A stretch of DNA of 64,000 nucleotides from an uncultured Candidatus Saccharibacteria bacterium (GTDB taxonomy: Bacteria > Patescibacteriota > Saccharimonadia > Saccharimonadales > Saccharimonadaceae), in assembly GCA_964549525.1 (NCBI GenBank), contig CAZJUR010000003.1, forward strand, positions 2,030-66,029, read 5' to 3'. The notes beneath the pieces were generated by a model, which made no database searches, was not told the DNA's origin, and saw only the letters and a list, made by a program, of their open reading frames with translations. This document shows positions 34,334-43,957 of the stretch, in pieces (position 1 is the first letter of the stretch; each line of letters starts with the position of its first letter). The position numbers and the translations under genes are program-made.

Positions 34334-34917
34334 GCGGCGACTCCTATGATATAAACAAAGCTAAAGATAAATATCCAGATCAAATCTAAAAAGTGCCAAA
34401 AAAGGGTAAATAGCGATAGTCTGCGAATCACCGTATCATCAATTGGCCGCCGGATAAGGCGCCAAATAAGCGTGAACGCCCAGAGAAGTCCTATGCATAT
34501 ATGTAAGCCGTGCGTACCTACCAATGTGAAGAATGCCGACAAAAAGGCACTACGTTGCCAATCATTGCCTTCTGCAATGAGTTGGTAAAATTCCTTTAAT
34601 TCCATACTGACAAATGCCACCCCTAAGAGCGTCGTTATACTCAAATAGAGAAGTACACGGAGGGACTGTTTTTGTTTCGCATATATGAGAGACAGACCAG
34701 CTGTAAAGCTACTCAGTAAGAGTAAAATTGTTTCGGTCAATACAAATTTCAAACTAAAGAGCTCGGCTGCATCAGATCCGCCATTCGTATTGTTTCTGAG
34801 AACAGCAAATGTAGCAAATAAACTCGCAAACAATAAACAGTCGGTCATGAGGTATAGCCAAAACCCAAAAGTTGCTTTCTCGTGTTTTTCCTGTAAATGA
34901 GTCTGCTTATATTTCAT
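34330..34917 (-). CDS. cyoC: Cytochrome o ubiquinol oxidase subunit III
   Basis: 195 aa with 5 TM helices and a subunit III-like block ([13 protein letters not shown]). Overlaps cyoD by 4 nt. Confidence 0.9.
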
Positions 34918-36859
34918 ATGCTCTACTCCTCTTAATGGACGATGGATGAATCAGAATATCTTCTGTCTCATTTGTAGTGCGAATAATGGTGCATACAATG
35001 ACCCCCACTAGGCCGACAATCATTAACCACCAGATATGCCAAATAATAGCAAAACATGCCATACCTGCGAACCCAGCAATATATATACCAAATCCCGTGT
35101 TTTTAGGAATATAAAATGGCTCGGGTGCGCCGTAAATCAACCCTTTTTTATTCTTTTTGTATTCCCACCACGCATCTCGATCGGTAACCGTAGGAATAAC
35201 ATCGAAATTATAATGAGGAATACGAATCGGTAGCGACCATTCAAGTGTTCGTGCATCCCACGGATCACCACTTTTGATTCGTAATGCGTGGCGATTTTTA
35301 ATACTAACAATAAGTTGGACAACCTGCATAAGAACACCCAGCCCAATAATCGCCACCCCAATGCCTGCTACGATAAAGAGCCCTTGCCAGCCAAGTGATG
35401 GATCGTAATGATCGAGTCGACGCGTTGCTCCCATGAAACCGAGAATATAGAGGGGCATAAAAGCGACGAAAAAGCCGACAATCCAACAATATGCTGCATA
35501 CTTGCCTAGTCTATCATGGAGTGTGAAGCCAAAAATGCGCGGGAACCAGTACATAAAACCAGCAATATAACCGAACACGACACCACCGATAATTGTGTTA
35601 TGAAAATGAGCAACTAAAAACAAACTATTATGCACTTGAAAGTCTACCGCTGGTACAGACAAGAGAACACCAGTCATTCCACCGAGTGTGAAGGTAAATA
35701 AAAAACCCATGAACCAGACCATAGGTGCCGTGAAGCGAATGCGACCTCGATACATAGTAAATAGCCAGTTAAAAACTTTAACTCCAGTCGGCACAGCGAT
35801 AATCATGGTCATAATTCCAAAGAAAGCGTTAACATTTGCACCAGCCCCCATAGTGAAAAAGTGATGCGCCCACACTACAAAGGATAAAAAGCAAATCGCA
35901 ATTGTTGCGCCAACCATTGATATATAGCCAAAAAGTCGTTTTTTACAAAAAGTGGCTACTATTTCTGAGAACATACCAAAGGCTGGGAGAATCAAGATAT
36001 AAACTTCTGGGTGGCCCCATGCCCAAATCAGATTAATGTACATCATCGGATTACCGCCTCCCATAGCAGTAAAGAAATGCATACCAAGCGTTCGATCAAG
36101 CGCCAGCATAGCTAGCGTCGCGGTAAGGATAGGGAAAACTAAGACGACTAAAACCATTGAAGCCCCTACAGTCCAGGTGAAAATAGGCATGCGCATCGCA
36201 GTCATGCCTGGCGCGCGAAATTTAATAATGGTTGTTAAAAAATTAACTCCAGACAACAGACTACCTACGCCGGCAATTTGGATCGCCCACAGCCAGTAAT
36301 CTACACCGACGCCGGGGCTATATTCAGTCCCAGATAGTGGCGGATATGCCAGCCATCCAGCCGGTGACATCTCGCCTACAACTAGGGAAAGATTGATGAG
36401 CACCATGCCAGCGCAAAACAACCAGAAGCTAAGAGAATTGAGGAAGGGAAACGCTACGTCCCGCGCACCGATTTGTAAAGGCAAGACAAGGTTGATGAGC
36501 CCAAACATTAAGCCCATGGCTACAAAGAAAATCATAATTGTACCATGTGCCGTAAATACTTGCTGGAAATGATCCGAACTGAGTATTCCAGCTGCATCAC
36601 CAGAGGCCAGCGCTTGCTGAATGCGCATCATAATAGCATCGGAAAAGCCTCGTATCAACATGATAAAAGCCACGATGAGATACATGACACCGATTTTTTT
36701 ATGGTCGAGTGACGTTAACCACTCTTTCCATAGCCAGGTCCATCGTCGTAAATAAAATAAAAGAGCAATGACGATAATAACGCTCACCGTCATGCCAGCG
36801 ACTGCACCGAGCTGGATGAGTGGATGTTGAAAAGATTCAAGACTTAATCTCCCAAACAT
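34907..36859 (-). CDS. cyoB: Cytochrome o ubiquinol oxidase subunit I (heme-copper oxidase)
   Basis: 650 aa with HCO blocks [26 protein letters not shown] and [11 protein letters not shown]. Confidence 0.97.
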
Positions 36860-37737
36860 TATGCCCCCTCCTTCTGGTGTACTGTAGCCATATATTTTGC
36901 AATAATTTTATCATATATATCGGGGTCTTGTGATCCATACAGCAACACGGAAGTATCTTTATTTGGTCGAGATAAATTGCTATACCCTTCATAGCTCAGC
37001 CGATTTGGCGAAGACTTAACTTTTTTTATCCAATTTTCATAATTTGGCTCGCTCATAGAGTGAGCTTTGAATCGCATATTTGCAAAACCCTCACCGCTGA
37101 TATTGGCTGAAGAGCCGTCATGAATACCAGGATTATCTGCCATCAGATGAAGCTGCGTACTCATACCACTCATCGCATATATTTGTCCACCTAAACTCGG
37201 GATCCAGAACGAATTCATGGGAGCGTCAGAAGTAATCACAAATTTTACCGGACGCTTTTCAGGAAAGGCCACATAATTAACTGTTGCAATATTCTCCTCT
37301 GGATACATGAATAACCATCTCCATTCTAAAGCTACGACTTGTACTGTCAGCGGTTTTTTATCAGAAGCTATGGGTTTAAACGGGTCAAGGCTATGCGAAC
37401 TAAACCACGTGATAGTAGCAAGAATGCTAATAATAACAATCGGTACTCCCCACCAAATAAATTCTGCAATCGGCTGAGAATCCCATTTCGGGTCATATCT
37501 TGCCTGAGTATTTTTCTCGCGGTATTTTAGCGAAAAAATAATTGCCATCGTAAATACCGGTATCACGACAATGAGCATTAAACCAACAGTTATGAGAAAT
37601 ATATTACGCTGTTCTTCGGCAATAGGGCCAGCAGTTTGGAAAAAAGGAATAGGGTAATTTTGCACATAATTTATCGCATATGACAGTGAAGCAAATAACA
37701 CTGCAACCCAAAGTAAAACCAAGATTTTTTTTCGCAT
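36859..37737 (-). CDS. cyoA: Cytochrome o ubiquinol oxidase subunit II (no CuA ligands)
   Basis: [52 protein letters not shown] parallels E. coli CyoA ([31 protein letters not shown]...). It lacks the CuA Cys/His motif, so a quinol oxidase is indicated. Confidence 0.92.
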
Positions 37738-37760
37738 TTTCCCCCGCTTGTCTAAGCTTT

Positions 37761-37769
37761 AGTATAACA
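37761..37769 (-). promoter_or_regulatory. Extended -10 (TGtTATACT) upstream of cyoA
   Basis: The reverse complement of 37761-37769 reads TGTTATACT, followed by a 23-nt leader with GGGGGAA before ATG 37737. Confidence 0.4.
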
Positions 37770-38456
37770 CTACATAATATTGGTGCCTAGCAGTTTACCG
37801 ACACCGAACGTAATTGCCATAGCTAAGAATCCACCAATCACAACTCGTACTACGGCTTGTTTTTTTGATGCTCCACCCACCATAGCGCTCAAAGAACCGG
37901 TGATGAAAAGAGCAAAACCTACGGCAATAAATGTCGCAATTACCCGCCATTTTTCAGGTGATAAGGTGACACTCAAAAGTGGTAAAATTGCCCCTGCGGT
38001 AAAGGATAAACCCGACGCAATAGCTGCATGAAGTGGATTAGTGAGTGCATCTGGTTGTAAATTATATTCAGCTTCGGCGTGTGCCTTCAACGGATCATGC
38101 TTCATTAACTCTCGGGCAACTTGTTGAGCTGTTTTGGGCTGTAAGCCTTTTTGAATGTAAGTTTCTTCGAGCTCTTTTTCTTGCTCTTTTGGATTATGGG
38201 TGATTTTCTGCTGCTCTCGATCGAGGGTTGCGCGTTCGCTGTCCCGTTGGCTACTAACAGAAACATATTCCCCGACCGCCATTGATAGCGCACCGGCTAC
38301 TAAGCCTGCCATCCCAGCAATAAATACCGCATTTGCAGAGCTCGAAGCACCGGCTACTCCAACCACAATACTAGCCGTTGATACGATGCCATCGTTTGCG
38401 CCTAATACCGCAGCTCGCAGCTTGTTTAGTGTTGCGCTAGATACGTCGTTCTGCAT
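37770..38456 (-). CDS. VIT1/CCC1-family iron (Fe/Mn) transporter
   Basis: LGANDGIVSTASIVVGVAG and a C-terminal 3-TM bundle typical of the VIT1 family. Confidence 0.88.
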   Translation of the reverse strand: MQNDVSSATLNKLRAAVLGANDGIVSTASIVVGVAGASSSANAVFIAGMAGLVAGALSMAVGEYVSVSSQRDSERATLDREQQKITHNPKEQEKELEETYIQKGLQPKTAQQVARELMKHDPLKAHAEAEYNLQPDALTNPLHAAIASGLSFTAGAILPLLSVTLSPEKWRVIATFIAVGFALFITGSLSAMVGGASKKQAVVRVVIGGFLAMAITFGVGKLLGTNIM

Positions 38457-38721
38457 ACGGTTTTAGGCTGTAGTGGTAAAAAGCTTCCATGACGAAAAAT
38501 AACGATAATGCAACTGATGCCGTCGCACAGAAATGTCCAAGATTAGCTGGTGCTATTGCTACCAAACCAATTCCTGTAAGAACTATACTACTGAAAATTA
38601 CTCTTATATAAGCGAGTAGTGTTGTTTGGGTGTGACGAAAAATCTGATACATTGCTACTACCCAAAATACAAACCCCAGACATGCCAAAAATATATGAAA
38701 TGTTAAAAGAAAACTATACAT
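38437..38721 (-). CDS. Hypothetical 94-aa membrane protein
   Basis: Three hydrophobic helices. TGcTACACT (reverse complement of 38728-38736) ends 7 nt before ATG 38721. Overlaps the VIT1 start by 20 nt. Confidence 0.55.
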   Translation of the reverse strand: MYSFLLTFHIFLACLGFVFWVVAMYQIFRHTQTTLLAYIRVIFSSIVLTGIGLVAIAPANLGHFCATASVALSLFFVMEAFYHYSLKPYAERRI

Positions 38722-38776: not shown

Positions 38777-39646
38777 TTAAGATATAGTTGAATGAAACGG
38801 GATATTGAGCTTTTTTAAAACTACTTCAAATCGTTTGTAACCATCTTGATTACGAAGCTCAACCCACTCCACTTTAAGGCTATCAAGCTGGCGTTTATTA
38901 AGGTCAGATAATTTATCGGCTACAAATACTGAGCTCGAACGAGCAATCACTGCATCAGCGCTTTCAGGGTTGCCTTGTCCCATGAGTTTAACTTCACACT
39001 TGTGTTCATGCCCCTGTTGGTCGACGAGATAAAAGTCGATCTCTCGTGTGATTTCATCTAATTTTTTTTCAGTTTTAGACTTTATTCGATAATGTTCACT
39101 CGACACGCCATATAGTTTGCACAATTCCTGCATCAATGGTTTCTCGACTCTTTTCCCTGCGGTACTCCATAGACCACCACGAAGTGCAGCTCGCTTGACC
39201 GCAAGTGTATTGATGACAATTAATGTTTCACCGACATTTAAATCGACACTGACGCCATGTAATTTTAGAGTTAGCGTCAGGTCAATAGTATCTTCGTTGG
39301 TGACTAATTCTTTAATGCTGTTATAGAGTACATCATAATGTTCGTTGGCTGCTTCAAGAACAATCTCTCGTCGGGCTGAATTATACATATTGGTGATGGT
39401 TTTTTTGTTAAGGCCTGAGTTAATAGCAATTTCATCAGTCGAAAGTGTTTCATCTAAAAATTCCTTTTTATACCAGTCGGTTGTGATGTCATGATTACGT
39501 AGTTTCGCTTCGATAACTTTTTTAAAAAAATCCAATGAATATTGCATAAATTCAGCATTAATCAGGCTGACAATCTCGATGCGATAATCCTCTCCTTTTA
39601 GTAGCTTGGCAATAATACGCTGTACGACTTCATCAGTAATAGTCAT
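38777..39646 (-). CDS. Putative type II restriction endonuclease (PD-(D/E)XK-like), partner of the adjacent methyltransferase
   Basis: 289 aa with a C-terminal candidate catalytic motif IDFYLVDQQGHEHKCEVK (D-x13-E-x-K). AAGGAG Shine-Dalgarno (39652-57) lies inside the upstream gene, and the ATG overlaps the MTase stop (ATGA at 39643-39646). I cannot name a family. Confidence 0.5.
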   Translation of the reverse strand: MTITDEVVQRIIAKLLKGEDYRIEIVSLINAEFMQYSLDFFKKVIEAKLRNHDITTDWYKKEFLDETLSTDEIAINSGLNKKTITNMYNSARREIVLEAANEHYDVLYNSIKELVTNEDTIDLTLTLKLHGVSVDLNVGETLIVINTLAVKRAALRGGLWSTAGKRVEKPLMQELCKLYGVSSEHYRIKSKTEKKLDEITREIDFYLVDQQGHEHKCEVKLMGQGNPESADAVIARSSSVFVADKLSDLNKRQLDSLKVEWVELRNQDGYKRFEVVLKKLNIPFHSTIS

Positions 39647-40911
39647 ATATTCTCCTTTATATATTTCTTAAATTGATTGATCGAAAAACAAGATGGAGTA
39701 GTTTCTTCATGAAAAAGAGAAGGTGTTTGGACAGAAAATCGCTGTTTCATATACGAAAAATATTCGTCGTTATTTTCCGTCATAAAGAAATACCGGCCCA
39801 TTTTCTGTGCAGTATCCCCTAGCGTACCAGAGCCTGCAAATGGGTCATATATCAAATCTCCTTTGTATGAGTAATATTGAATTATTTTACGACACAGCGT
39901 TTCTGGAAAAACAGCTGTATGATTTTTATTATAAACTGGGTCAATCTTCCAAACATTACTGCTATCATAATCTCCCATAACTTTACTCGCTTCGACAATT
40001 TCATTTGGGTACGCACGCATATTCCAGTCAAGTAATTTAGGAGTTTTTTTACGATATACCATGAGCATTTCTGTTACAGTGTTTGGTTTATACCCTAGTG
40101 GTTTGCGATGTTGCATGAAGCCGCCGACTCGATTTTTGACACTAGCTTCAGGTTTGAGCCAAATAATATCATCGATATATTCCCAACCCTCCTCAACTAT
40201 AATACTATGCAGATCAAAAGGAATAGGGTAGCGTTTACTCGCGTGTTGTCGACTAACACGAGGAACAATAATCGGTGAGGTATTGATGATAAAAAAACGA
40301 CCCTCTTTTGTAACACGTGCTAATTCTCGTACGATTGTTCTCAAAAAATTGAGGTATTCATTGTAACTTTTGTAAAATGTATAGTCCCGTGCGTTGTAAT
40401 AAGGTGGAGAGGTAAAGGTAAGATGAAAAGATTCGTCAGGTAATAATTGGAGTGTCTGTAATGCATCGCCGGAGACAATAACATTTTTGAGTACATCTGG
40501 CGATACTACTCGCAAATCAATTGTCTTTTTTGGAGCTTCGGAAAGCGATTTTAAAAGTATTTCTTGAATCATTTCATTCTCGTGACCAAGTAGTTCATGT
40601 ATTTTTTTTTGTACGAGAGATTTGTCTTTAAAAATCAACAGTGCACGTACTACTTGTATCACAACTTTTGGGTCCGGATCATTAGTAATAGAACATAAAA
40701 AAGAGATAGATTTAGGGTCACGTAATCTGCCCAGAGACGATACCGCTTCCCGTCGAACGTGCGAATGAGTATCGTGTTTGATAATTTTTTTAAAATATTT
40801 TACAAGACTTTGATCTTTCAGTTTCCCGAGTTCTTTGACTGCATGAAGACGAACGCTCGGCTTTTCCGCTTCAAGCGCCTTTACTAAAACATTTCTTTCT
40901 TCTACTCCCAT
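39643..40911 (-). CDS. Beta-class N4-cytosine/N6-adenine DNA methyltransferase with N-terminal HEAT-repeat domain
   Basis: Motif IV (FTSPPYYNARDY) precedes motif I (DPFAGSGTLGDTA), the N6_N4_Mtase-type order. Residues 1-130 form HEAT/PBS-lyase-like repeats (VRLHAVKELGKLKD, HVRREAVSSLGRLRD, PKVVIQVVRALLIF). Confidence 0.85.
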   Translation of the reverse strand: MGVEERNVLVKALEAEKPSVRLHAVKELGKLKDQSLVKYFKKIIKHDTHSHVRREAVSSLGRLRDPKSISFLCSITNDPDPKVVIQVVRALLIFKDKSLVQKKIHELLGHENEMIQEILLKSLSEAPKKTIDLRVVSPDVLKNVIVSGDALQTLQLLPDESFHLTFTSPPYYNARDYTFYKSYNEYLNFLRTIVRELARVTKEGRFFIINTSPIIVPRVSRQHASKRYPIPFDLHSIIVEEGWEYIDDIIWLKPEASVKNRVGGFMQHRKPLGYKPNTVTEMLMVYRKKTPKLLDWNMRAYPNEIVEASKVMGDYDSSNVWKIDPVYNKNHTAVFPETLCRKIIQYYSYKGDLIYDPFAGSGTLGDTAQKMGRYFFMTENNDEYFSYMKQRFSVQTPSLFHEETTPSCFSINQFKKYIKENI

Positions 40912-41125: not shown

Positions 41126-41199
41126 TGGCTGGGGATGAGGGATTCGAACCCCCGATCATGGGACCAGAACCCACTGCCTTACCACTTGGCCAATCCCCA
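41126..41199 (-). tRNA. tRNA-Gln (anticodon CUG), CCA encoded
   Basis: The reverse complement reads TGGGGAT-TG-GCCAAGTGGTAAGGC-A-GTGGG-TTCTGGT-CCCAT-GATC-GGGGG-TTCGAAT-CCCTC-ATCCCCA-G-CCA. The U1:A72 pair and overall sequence closely resemble E. coli tRNA-Gln. Confidence 0.93.
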
Positions 41200-41203
41200 C
41201 TAA
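41150..41203. repeat. 54-bp direct repeat, copy A (inside intact tRNA-Gln)
   Basis: Identical to 41336-41389, read base by base. Covers tRNA positions 1-50 plus 4 nt of 5' flank. Confidence 0.9.
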
Positions 41204-41335: not shown

Positions 41336-41385
41336 CCCCGATCATGGGACCAGAACCCACTGCCTTACCACTTGGCCAATCCCCA
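41336..41385 (-). pseudogene. Truncated tRNA-Gln copy (5' two-thirds only)
   Basis: Acceptor 5' strand, D arm, anticodon arm (CUG) and variable loop are present. The following sequence cannot form a T arm or pair with the acceptor 5' strand. Confidence 0.8.
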
Positions 41386-41389
41386 CTAA
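41336..41389. repeat. 54-bp direct repeat, copy B
   Basis: Identical to 41150-41203, offset by 186 bp. Confidence 0.9.
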
Positions 41390-41464
41390 TCTGTGAAAAG
41401 TATAACAAATCGCTGCTTGACGAGCAATCAATCACTTGGTACGATAGAAAAACATTAACAAATT

Positions 41465-41575
41465 AAATATCAAGAGGCAGGGAGAGGACTAGCTCGACGA
41501 TCTGCCAGCAACCAATCGTAGATTACGATCAGGTGCTCCAACTAGCCGCCTGCTTATCAGACGGAATGATGTGAA
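41465..41575 (+). promoter_or_regulatory. SAM-I (S-box) riboswitch aptamer
   Basis: AUAUCAAGAG-GCAG-GGAGAGGACUAGCUCGACGA-UCUGCC-AGCAACC-[AUCGUA-gau-UACGAU]-CAGGUGCUCCAACUAGC-[CCGCCUG-cuuau-CAGACGG]-AAUGAUGU matches the SAM-I consensus (CUUAUCAAGAG...GGGA.UGGCCCGAUGA...GGCAACC...GGUGC.AA.UCC.GC...AGAUGAG) with helices P1-P4 in order. Confidence 0.85.
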
Positions 41576-41639: not shown

Positions 41640-42809
41640 ATGAAACAATCAAGGGGCTTTCATACAAAATTAGTGCACGCAGCTGAAGAGCCAGATCATG
41701 CCACTGGCGCAATCGCACCTATCCTGGTGAGATCGAAAACATTTGCCCAACCAGGTTTAGGCAAAACCCCAACTTGGCAGTATTCGCGTGGCAAAAATCC
41801 TACTAGGAGTATTCTAGAAAAAAAATTATCAATTCTCGCAGGCGGTGGACAGACAACTGTTTTTGGATCTGGTGATGCTGCGACCACAATGTTTTTATTG
41901 ACACTAAAACCCGGCGATCATATTTTGGCCTGTCAAGAATTATATGGTGGAACAGTGAGATTATTTGACCAATTGTTCGCGAAGTTTAAGATTTCGGTTA
42001 GTTATATCGACATAGAAGATGAAGCAGAAATCAAAAAAAATCGGACAAAAAATACGGTAGCTATCTGGGTAGAAAGTCCCACTAATCCCAAGCTCGGAGC
42101 CATCGATCTCCGACGTGTAGGCGTGCTTGCAAAAAAATATGCTTTACATTATGTAGCTGATCTTACCTTTGCACCGCCGTGTGCAGTCCAACCATTTGAC
42201 TACGGTGTTGATACGGTCATTTATAGTCTCAGTAAATATTTTGCTGGACATAACGATGTGATTGGGGGCGCAGTAGTAACAAAAGATAAAAAATTAAACG
42301 AACAACTCGAATGGCTGCAATGGTCAGTCGGTGCATGTCTTTCGCCCGACGAATGTTATCGAGTTATTCAAGGTTTGAAAACACTGAAGTTGCGATGGGA
42401 TCATGTCAGCCAAACTGCGGATCAGGTTGCTGCTTTTTTGAATAATCATAGCAAAGTTAAAGCCGTATACCATCCGACAATTACTGGACATGATTCTCGA
42501 GGCGTACTGGCTCGTCAGATGCATCAACGATATGGCAGCGTGATTGGTTTTGATCTGGTAACATCGGAGAAAGCAAAGCTTGTTCAATTTGTTGAGCAGT
42601 TAGTTCGCTTAAGAATTGTCATATATGGTGAAAGCTTGGCGAGTCCAGAAACAATTATTGCTCATCCGGCGAGCATGAGTCATCGCGGGATGACCGAAGC
42701 ACAACGTCGTGCACGAGGTATTACAAATAACTTTTTCCGTCTCAGTGTTGGGTTTGAGGATAGCCAGGATATCATTCAGGCGCTAGATGACGCTTTGAGT
42801 GCGATATAA
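41640..42809 (+). CDS. Cys/Met-metabolism PLP-dependent enzyme (cystathionine gamma-synthase / beta-lyase / O-acylhomoserine sulfhydrylase family)
   Basis: 389 aa with the PLP-lysine block YSLSKYFAGHNDVIGG and a C-terminal RLSVGFED block. Preceded by the SAM riboswitch. Confidence 0.88.
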   Translation: MKQSRGFHTKLVHAAEEPDHATGAIAPILVRSKTFAQPGLGKTPTWQYSRGKNPTRSILEKKLSILAGGGQTTVFGSGDAATTMFLLTLKPGDHILACQELYGGTVRLFDQLFAKFKISVSYIDIEDEAEIKKNRTKNTVAIWVESPTNPKLGAIDLRRVGVLAKKYALHYVADLTFAPPCAVQPFDYGVDTVIYSLSKYFAGHNDVIGGAVVTKDKKLNEQLEWLQWSVGACLSPDECYRVIQGLKTLKLRWDHVSQTADQVAAFLNNHSKVKAVYHPTITGHDSRGVLARQMHQRYGSVIGFDLVTSEKAKLVQFVEQLVRLRIVIYGESLASPETIIAHPASMSHRGMTEAQRRARGITNNFFRLSVGFEDSQDIIQALDDALSAI

Positions 42810-43405: not shown

Positions 43406-43957
43406 ATGAATAACGATCAATCACCCCAACCACAAAAACAAAGCATCTGGAGTAAACTTTTCGGTGGCAGTAAAAAACAAGATACTGCGCCGCAAACAGA
43501 TCAGTCACCTGCGACTCCGCCCACGCCACCACCCACCATCGAACCAACTGCGCCAGTTATTCCAGTAACTGACACGCCTGTAGCATCAACACCGATGCCC
43601 GATCCTACCACTGAACTTCCGCCTACGGATGCAAGCCCAAGCATGGAAAATGATTTTAGTATTCCTGCACCAGAAGAAGTCGTGACACCTACTGCTTCGC
43701 CTGCAGACACAGTGCAATCTACGGCGGTTCCACCTACTTCTCCAGATATAAATGTCAATGTTTCTGTGGAGCAACCACCATCATCTCCGCAAGCAAGTTC
43801 GACTGATATTCCACAACCTCCCGTTGACCCAATGGTTTCTCCCGCACCTTCTCCTTCTGTAGAATCCTCTTTTACTCCAAGTCAGTCAGCAGGGACAAAC
43901 GATACAGTTTCAACCGAAGACGATAAGAATACTCCACCAAATCTTACGGCAGTATAA
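43406..43957 (+). CDS. Hypothetical Pro/Thr/Ser-rich low-complexity protein
   Basis: 183 aa, mostly P/T/S/A/V, with no TM helix. TATGAT (43394-43399) ends 7 nt before the ATG. The antisense ORFs here are composition artefacts. Confidence 0.5.
   Translation: MNNDQSPQPQKQSIWSKLFGGSKKQDTAPQTDQSPATPPTPPPTIEPTAPVIPVTDTPVASTPMPDPTTELPPTDASPSMENDFSIPAPEEVVTPTASPADTVQSTAVPPTSPDINVNVSVEQPPSSPQASSTDIPQPPVDPMVSPAPSPSVESSFTPSQSAGTNDTVSTEDDKNTPPNLTAV

Follow-up and report, generated by a model that had tools for sequence, protein, structure and literature searches.

A probable restriction-modification operon with a HEAT-repeat methyltransferase in a Saccharibacteria genome

The subject of this report is a two-gene locus in a 64,000-nt stretch of DNA (contig CAZJUR010000003.1; hereafter, the window) from an uncultured Candidatus Saccharibacteria bacterium. 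Positions 38777-40911 encode, on the minus strand, a DNA methyltransferase with an N-terminal HEAT-repeat domain and a smaller partner assigned to the CfrBI family of restriction endonucleases. Here we describe the two genes, trace their relatives across bacteria and archaea, and weigh the explanations for a candidate restriction-modification (R-M) system of this architecture.

The operon and its two enzymes

The features of the locus are as follows:

39643..40911, minus strand: methyltransferase (MTase) gene, an open reading frame (ORF) of 422 amino acids (aa), 49.1 kDa, isoelectric point (pI) 9.2, with a HEAT-repeat N-terminus and a beta-class N6_N4 MTase domain
40537..40911, minus strand: HEAT-repeat domain of the MTase, residues 1-125, from the AlphaFold2 (AF2) model and alphaRep matches
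40399..40410, minus strand: MTase motif IV SPPY, catalytic loop, residues 168-171, read from the sequence
39823..39840, minus strand: MTase motif I FAGSGT, S-adenosylmethionine (AdoMet)-binding loop, residues 358-363, read from the sequence
39643..39657, minus strand: translational coupling signal, consisting of an AAGGAG Shine-Dalgarno sequence (39652-39657) and an ATGA overlap (39643-39646)
38777..39646, minus strand: restriction endonuclease (REase) gene, 289 aa, 33.2 kDa, assigned to the CfrBI family (PF09516), PD-(D/E)XK type
38987..39037, minus strand: predicted REase catalytic core D204...E218-V-K220 (ID-x13-EVK), from residue invariance and the AF2 model
41126-41199, minus strand: tRNA-Gln(CUG), flanking and outside the R-M system, found by ARAGORN and scoring 60.4 bits with the Rfam tRNA model, 214 nt upstream of the MTase start

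The MTase frame ends in ...AAT ATA TGA and the REase frame begins with ATG ACT, so that the stop and start codons share one ATGA, and the AAGGAG ends 5 nt ahead of the REase ATG. The initial annotation, made from the DNA letters without database searches, had described a co-directional minus-strand pair with this overlap and an AAGGAG inside the first gene, and both ORFs and the overlap are indeed present. As a consequence of the ATGA coupling, ribosomes would have to translate the methylase gene first for any nuclease to be produced. The impression that the locus is richer in AT than its neighbours was likewise borne out: the GC content of the operon is 0.375, compared with 0.422 +/- 0.019 for 2.1-kb windows, which places it in the lowest 0.7% of the window.

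Within the MTase, TSPPY (residues 167-171) precedes DPFAGSGT (356-363), which is the IV...I motif order of the beta class, as originally proposed. The assignment agrees with the Pfam match to N6_N4_Mtase (E = 1.6e-36, 126.8 bits against a cutoff of 26.7), and two PADLOC MTase_II profiles match at 3e-84 and 1.7e-80. Both motifs are strictly conserved in an alignment of 32 homologues, with S168, P169, P170 and Y171 of motif IV and F358, G360, S361, G362 and T363 of the FxGSGT signature all invariant. The best Foldseek matches of the modelled catalytic core are beta-class enzymes, namely TTHA0409, rotifer N4CMT, CcrM, M1.HpyAVI, MboIIA, RsrI and PvuII (E from 2e-15 to 8e-10; TM-scores of 0.6-0.76, normalised to the target). 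The SPPY tetrapeptide is typical of N4-cytosine enzymes, whereas the N6-adenine enzymes of the beta class usually have DPPY. Because of this preference, and because M.CfrBI and M.Hpy99IV are N4-methylcytosine (m4C) enzymes, the product of the window MTase is most likely m4C.

The 289-aa partner had been regarded as unassignable to any family, which did not hold up. Pfam RE_CfrBI (PF09516) matches at 84.9 bits against a cutoff of 25 (E = 7.3e-24), with residues 6-250 of the protein aligned to positions 2-256 of the 257-position profile, and PADLOC REase_II PDLC03496 matches residues 1-285 at 2.3e-104. Judged by these nearly full-length profile matches, the protein is a CfrBI-family PD-(D/E)XK restriction endonuclease. 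The faint PD-(D/E)XK-like signature first noticed by eye (IDFYLVD...CEVK) proved sound, since D204, E218 and K220, together with E202, are invariant in 27 homologues (REIDFYL...CEVK). The AF2 model places D204 on strand 203-208 and both E218 and K220 on strand 214-220; these consecutive strands belong to an alpha-beta-beta-beta-alpha-beta unit with predicted local distance difference test (pLDDT) scores of 70-92, within the confident C-terminal half of the protein.

Family distribution and the HEAT domain

Homologues of the REase are numerous (4256). The best 120 are 67-100% identical over their full length, all belong to PF09516 and come from DPANN/Woesearchaeota archaea, bacteria of the candidate phyla radiation (CPR), Bacteroidota and other groups; the name given by NCBI to REase homologues is 'CfrBI family restriction endonuclease'. 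The best 120 homologues of the MTase, mostly 455-470 aa long and 54-60% identical to it (plus one at 99%), all combine HEAT_2 with N6_N4_Mtase. Several of them are already labelled 'HEAT repeat domain-containing protein' by NCBI, and the alignment with PADLOC MTase_II profile PDLC03276 begins at residue 22 of the window MTase, inside the HEAT region. Both components of the pair are modelled already in Pfam, NCBI and PADLOC. The view that the HEAT repeats are not a standard methyltransferase accessory has to be abandoned for this family, in which they are the standard N-terminus (120 of the best 120 homologues); the region is a known and regular part of these enzymes, although not a characterised one.

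The REase is encoded by 488 GTDB species representatives, and 80 loci fetched from such representatives provide the gene-neighbourhood counts given below. The MTase gene lies directly upstream of the REase gene on the same strand in all 80, usually with a gap of 0-24 nt. HEAT repeats were detected in 78 loci and the other two are cut by contig ends, so that every testable locus (78/78) carries the HEAT-MTase with an adjacent REase, across archaea, CPR and many bacterial phyla. The same M-then-R order is seen in a DPANN archaeon and in a Sphingobacteriales genome. No conserved third gene accompanies the pair in the 80 loci. The sub-family comprises at least 488 species representatives, including CPR and DPANN, groups in which defence systems have been little studied.

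No small ORF for a helix-turn-helix (HTH) controller (C-protein) was found in the window between tRNA-Gln and the MTase start. An XRE-type, C-protein-like small ORF does stand upstream of the pair and co-directional with it in 9 of the 80 loci (e.g. L056:120-344, plus strand). Two loci from Bacteroidota/Chitinophagales (L032:3354-3697 and L076:9630-10000) have an insert of ~350 bp between the MTase and REase genes, encoding a small conserved ORF of about 105 aa (MT(A/T)LV...IITPCNE...) which might be a lineage-specific controller or an anti-toxin-like protein.

Several metagenomes contain copies of both genes that are identical or 99% identical to those of the window and are followed downstream by the same genes, and REases remain 67-72% identical across archaeal and bacterial phyla. 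The low GC content of the operon and this cross-domain spread of near-identical REases indicate horizontal acquisition. The module is seldom met on sequenced mobile elements: tblastn gave no match in the plasmid or the phage collection, and a single IMG/VR contig carries it.

The first ~130 residues of the MTase had been read as three to four HEAT/PBS-lyase-type repeats, and profiles and model now agree on four hairpins. Pfam HEAT_2 (5.7e-20, 71.8 bits against a cutoff of 27.7), HEAT (25.4 bits against 23.5) and HEAT_PBS (21.5 against 20.9) match on residues 8-91, and NCBIfam NblB and CpcE match weakly. The AF2 model, built from the 32-sequence alignment, folds residues 3-123 into eight helices (3-12, 18-29, 34-46, 50-62, 66-74, 81-92, 98-107 and 113-123), that is, four hairpins, with pLDDT above 90, and a disordered linker (residues 125-130) joins them to the catalytic domain. 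A phmmer search of PDB matched the region to designed alphaRep proteins (chains of several repeats scoring E of about 1e-18 to 1e-31), and Foldseek superimposed it on alphaRep 6g4j_B with a TM-score of 0.75. The domain is basic (pI 9.7). Among relatives, it is about 40% identical, compared with about 60% for the catalytic domain, and so evolves faster.

The HEAT proteins to which the first 125 residues can be aligned, of the PBS-lyase and alphaRep kinds, are bilin lyases, phycobilisome-degradation factors and artificial binders, none of them tied to DNA methylation. The beta-class enzymes of known structure (TTHA0409, M.PvuII, rotifer N4CMT, CcrM, M.MboIIA, M.RsrI and M1.HpyAVI) share the catalytic fold and motif order with the window MTase, but none has an N-terminal HEAT domain; rotifer N4CMT has a chromodomain, according to the available text of its description (PMC8885841). 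M.SsoII, as far as the available text presents it, offers a parallel: it is a type II MTase extended at its N-terminus by an additional domain, in the size range of about 70-130 aa, and belongs to a system that has no C-protein (PMC3978073). M.SsoII, however, is a C5-MTase and its added domain a DNA-binding repressor of the HTH type, whereas the window enzyme has an alpha-solenoid and no identified operator. Our literature search on HEAT-MTase fusions and on a role of HEAT repeats in MTases found no publication.

Relatives of the catalytic domain were sought exhaustively in 1.84 billion cluster representatives, and both HEAT-bearing and HEAT-less forms were found. A true HEAT-less homologue (L090) has a catalytic domain 54% identical to that of the window and is an orphan among small phage-like ORFs. 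Other MTases, with different, unannotated N-termini, pair with CfrBI-family REases of 343 and 394 aa, which are near the 40 kDa of R.CfrBI in size but only 22% identical to the window REase; HEAT-less MTases were found paired with no REases closer than these. Judging from these comparisons, HEAT is a fixed feature of the sub-family with short REases, although the same catalytic core can also carry other modules at its N-terminus. Two further architectures were seen, P0401 (493 aa), in which ParB_N is joined to N6_N4_Mtase, and P0372 (557 aa), in which a LexA-like Peptidase_S24 domain precedes HEAT and N6_N4_Mtase.

One candidate for a HEAT-less enzyme was rejected. At L089:3898-4250 (ENA ERZ25070167, a 3.46-Mb contig of 69% GC), a poly-G tract separates the HEAT region, recovered by hmmsearch at 2e-17, from a catalytic domain that is read in a different frame, and gene calling yielded the 354-aa MTase P0379 with a spurious N-terminus rich in Pro, Ser and Arg. 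The gene may be a pseudogene, the tract may be slippery and serve phase variation, or the shift may be no more than an error of sequencing; the adjacent REase is 43% identical to that of the window.

What the domain does can be suggested by analogy with CcrM, in which an extra C-terminal domain binds DNA. Our best guess, which is pure inference, is that HEAT acts as a basic alpha-solenoid adding non-specific contacts with the DNA backbone or with a partner subunit; such contacts would help a small beta-class catalytic domain to hold on to DNA or to dimerise on it. We do not think that it is a sensor. Thousands of DNA methyltransferases have a HEAT alpha-solenoid as an obligate component, and its presence does not mark a new kind of system.

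Recognition sequence and competing explanations

To test for site avoidance, we compared observed site counts with Markov expectations for 80 palindromic frames of the form XY-N(0-4)-Y'X' and for 2080 hexamer pairs. CCNNGG occurs 21 times in the window, against 96.7 sites expected from a third-order and 68.9 from a fourth-order model. The ratio of 0.22 (about 4.6-fold depletion) is the lowest of the 80 frames, and the control frames GGNNCC, CCNNNGG and CCNGG stand at 0.67, 0.86 and 0.79, respectively. The operon itself lies in a 9.7-kb stretch free of CCNNGG. The five most depleted of the 2080 hexamer pairs are all CCNNGG words, including some that do not fit CCWWGG (CCCAGG, 0 against 11 expected; CCGAGG, 2 against 13; CCAGGG, 1 against 10). 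The same depletion recurs in two loci of the closest sub-clade, L098 (3 sites where 26.1 would be expected; p = 1.6e-8; first of the 80 frames) and L100 (6 against 17.3, second of the 80), in which the REases are 75-76% identical and the MTases share the short N-terminus, in unrelated genomic contexts. With CCNNGG depleted in all three, and with words outside CCWWGG among those depleted in the window, the evidence tilts towards CCNNGG, and not CCWWGG, as the predicted recognition sequence.

Systems with this specificity have been described, and we compare them by published description. M.Hpy99IV of Helicobacter pylori J99 (jhp0629) is a beta-class m4C MTase for CCNNGG (PMC3936762), as predicted here for the window MTase in both class and product, and BsaJI has been named as a CCNNGG enzyme (PMC5117858); the predicted recognition sequence is what the window system has in common with both. 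The Hpy99IV REase has been assigned to the PD-(D/E)XK superfamily, in which Hpy99IV and CfrBI are listed as separate sequence subfamilies (PMC2441816). We found no report in the literature of a HEAT domain in the Hpy99IV or BsaJI MTases, and nothing relevant on cloned BsaJI.

Taken together, these observations identify the locus, with good confidence, as a chromosomal, horizontally acquired Type IIP R-M operon with predicted CCNNGG specificity and m4C modification. The beta-class SPPY MTase would turn a cytosine of the target site into N4-methylcytosine, shielding host DNA, and the CfrBI-family REase (D204, E218, K220) would cut unmethylated incoming DNA at the site of the MTase. HEAT would serve as a family-wide fixed accessory domain of the MTase, held on a flexible linker. 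That the pair may be an ordinary type II R-M system had been suggested from the start, and the suggestion is supported by the CfrBI-family assignment of the REase and the matches of both proteins to the PADLOC MTase_II and REase_II profiles. For a very widespread R-M sub-family, CCNNGG with m4C is a testable prediction.

Several points weigh against this reading or parts of it. The AF2 model of the REase is poor overall (mean pLDDT 62), because the alignment is too uniform, and Foldseek searches with it reached a best E of 0.015, the weak matches to Can2, NucS/EndoMS and Card1 (probability about 0.5-0.6) all being non-significant; phmmer found no match for the REase in PDB. The structural comparison that had been proposed for both proteins recovered the HEAT and MTase folds but no significant counterpart of the REase. 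The predicted nuclease fold rests on motif conservation and on the published superfamily assignment, in which CfrBI was placed at reliability 1, the lowest grade (Orlowski & Bujnicki 2008, PMC2441816). A scan of the minus strand from the tRNA to the MTase start detected no convincing sigma-70-like promoter, although CPR promoters may differ. As to specificity, CCATGG is the least depleted CCNNGG word in the window (7 against about 12 expected). Over the wider family the CCNNGG ratio is 0.70 (58 host loci pooled, rank 7 of 80), with significant depletion in 5 of 53 loci and in none of the other Saccharibacteria hosts, and depletion in the window and its sub-clade could stem from another CCNNGG system common to related hosts. 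The HEAT domain shows 14 invariant residues in the 32 homologues (R21, R54, E55, S58, G61, R62, D80, P81, K82, Q86, R89, H110, N112 and E113); by our reading of the alignment, most of them occupy generic consensus positions of PBS-type HEAT repeats, and they may be structural only. The analysis shows directly how the genes are built, to which families they belong, that their pairing and catalytic residues are conserved, that the N-terminus has a HEAT fold and that sites are avoided; the activity of both enzymes, like the m4C chemistry, the CCNNGG specificity and the role of HEAT, is inferred.

Family-wide avoidance was also tried as a route to the specificity and set aside: the 53-58 loci did not single out CCNNGG, the signal being dominated by GGCC, GGNCC and GATC, all of which are very widely avoided.

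The alternative that survives best, although we consider it unlikely, is that the system is a true CfrBI/StyI isoschizomer which recognises CCWWGG, the CCNNGG depletion being due to another system in the host lineage. CfrBI of Citrobacter freundii cuts C/CWWGG and M.CfrBI makes N4-methylcytosine at the outer C (PMC6556831). The window REase passes the threshold of the same Pfam family, RE_CfrBI; both MTases are of corresponding type, M.CfrBI being an N4C enzyme and the window MTase a beta-class enzyme of the SPPY type; and a CC..GG frame is common to the CfrBI site and the predicted site of the window. The words CCAAGG/CCTTGG (2 against about 18 expected) and CCTAGG (0) are depleted, and most hosts of the wider family show no CCNNGG depletion. 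On the other hand, the word least depleted in the window, CCATGG, itself belongs to CCWWGG, and CCCAGG, CCGAGG and CCAGGG, which do not, are among the most depleted hexamers, so that site avoidance in the window points to CCNNGG. Genuine CfrBI also differs in its proteins and layout. R.CfrBI and M.CfrBI are about 40 and about 42 kDa (PMC6556831), compared with 33 and 49 kDa for the window enzymes, and the CfrBI genes, according to the available text of a recent preprint, are divergent and share a promoter that contains a CfrBI site (bioRxiv 10.64898/2025.12.04.692298), whereas the window genes are co-directional and overlap. Those REases that approach CfrBI in size (343-394 aa) share just 22% identity with that of the window, and their partner MTases have no HEAT domain.

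Two further possibilities concern the HEAT domain. HEAT might physically couple the MTase to its short CfrBI-family REase, or bind another macromolecule, and in one variant it could hold the REase inactive until the genome has been methylated. We regard such coupling as quite unlikely. It is compatible with, and not demonstrated by, the confinement of HEAT to the short-REase branch and its absence from the orphan and the long-REase branch; if true, it would define a mechanistically distinct type II sub-family with protein-level control in place of a C-protein. Very unlikely, in our estimate, is the broader proposal, raised initially, of a variant defence module with HEAT as its sensor or recruiter, which would bind a phage or host protein or else contact the REase and so gate its nuclease activity. 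Solenoids of the HEAT type do usually serve as scaffolds for protein binding, the region has invariant charged residues, and HEAT is strictly retained with the short-REase sub-family (78/78 loci and the frameshifted L089 copy), but missing from the orphan homologue in phage context and from the MTases of the longer, distant CfrBI-family REases. Nevertheless, the pair is self-contained at all 78 testable loci, with no extra conserved gene, and constitutes a minimal M+R unit with classic translational coupling; most of the invariant HEAT residues fall at generic repeat-consensus positions; the strong host site avoidance is what an ordinary sequence-specific REase would be expected to cause; and the literature offered no support.

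Finally, a decayed or domesticated remnant, with an inactive nuclease and an MTase acting as a solitary epigenetic methylase, is highly improbable. The window MTase is about 35-40 residues shorter at the N-terminus and the REase about 16 residues shorter at the C-terminus than most relatives, and other loci do hold degraded copies (L006 with a truncated REase, L089 with the frameshifted MTase). But the short forms are common to a whole sub-clade (P0002, P0073, P0122-P0125), all invariant family residues are kept, neither ORF is interrupted and the two are coupled, several metagenomes have copies at 100% or 99% identity, and site avoidance as marked as this speaks for genuine pressure from restriction.

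Genomic neighbourhood

The R-M operon adjoins a rearranged tRNA-Gln locus, as had been noticed at the outset. The 5' 50 nt of tRNA-Gln(CUG), together with 4 nt upstream, are repeated perfectly and in direct orientation (54 nt, at 41150-41203 and again at 41336-41389), the copies being 186 nt apart with 132 nt of unrelated sequence between them and the second lying upstream of the tRNA gene. An attachment (att) site of an integrated island was considered and found unsupported: the layout is not that of a classic 3'-tRNA att duplication, since the duplicated part is the 5' portion of the tRNA, and the second copy is located upstream of the tRNA instead of beyond the R-M genes. All four Logan contigs that include the operon (L001-L004) break off between 95 and 214 nt upstream of the MTase start, where they reach tRNA-Gln or barely miss it, and the repeat may break short-read assemblies near this point.

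Farther upstream, a SAM riboswitch occupies 41464-41575 on the plus strand (Rfam RF00162, 61.1 bits, E = 1.5e-13) and forms the S-box leader directly upstream of a gene of pyridoxal phosphate (PLP)-dependent Cys/Met metabolism (41640-42809, plus strand).

Directly downstream of the R-M pair, a VIT1 iron-transporter gene and a cytochrome o ubiquinol oxidase operon extend over 34907-38456 on the minus strand and beyond. The latter includes cyoA and cyoB, with COX3, COX4_pro and UbiA genes seen in L001, and gives a CPR genome a module for aerobic respiration; the best named matches of CyoB are all from Saccharibacteria/Patescibacteria (70-73% identity), and the host is probably a member of this group. 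Between the REase and VIT1 genes lies a 94-aa hydrophobic ORF without a Pfam match (38437-38721, minus strand), sharing 20 nt with the start of VIT1. In GC content (0.368) and third-codon-position GC (0.274) it is no higher than the R-M genes, and it might have arrived together with them; it does not stand beside the module in other genomes. On the plus strand, a 183-aa ORF (43406-43957) is extremely rich in Pro, Thr and Ser, of low complexity and marked by a strong negative GC skew, and may encode a secreted or cell-surface linker protein.

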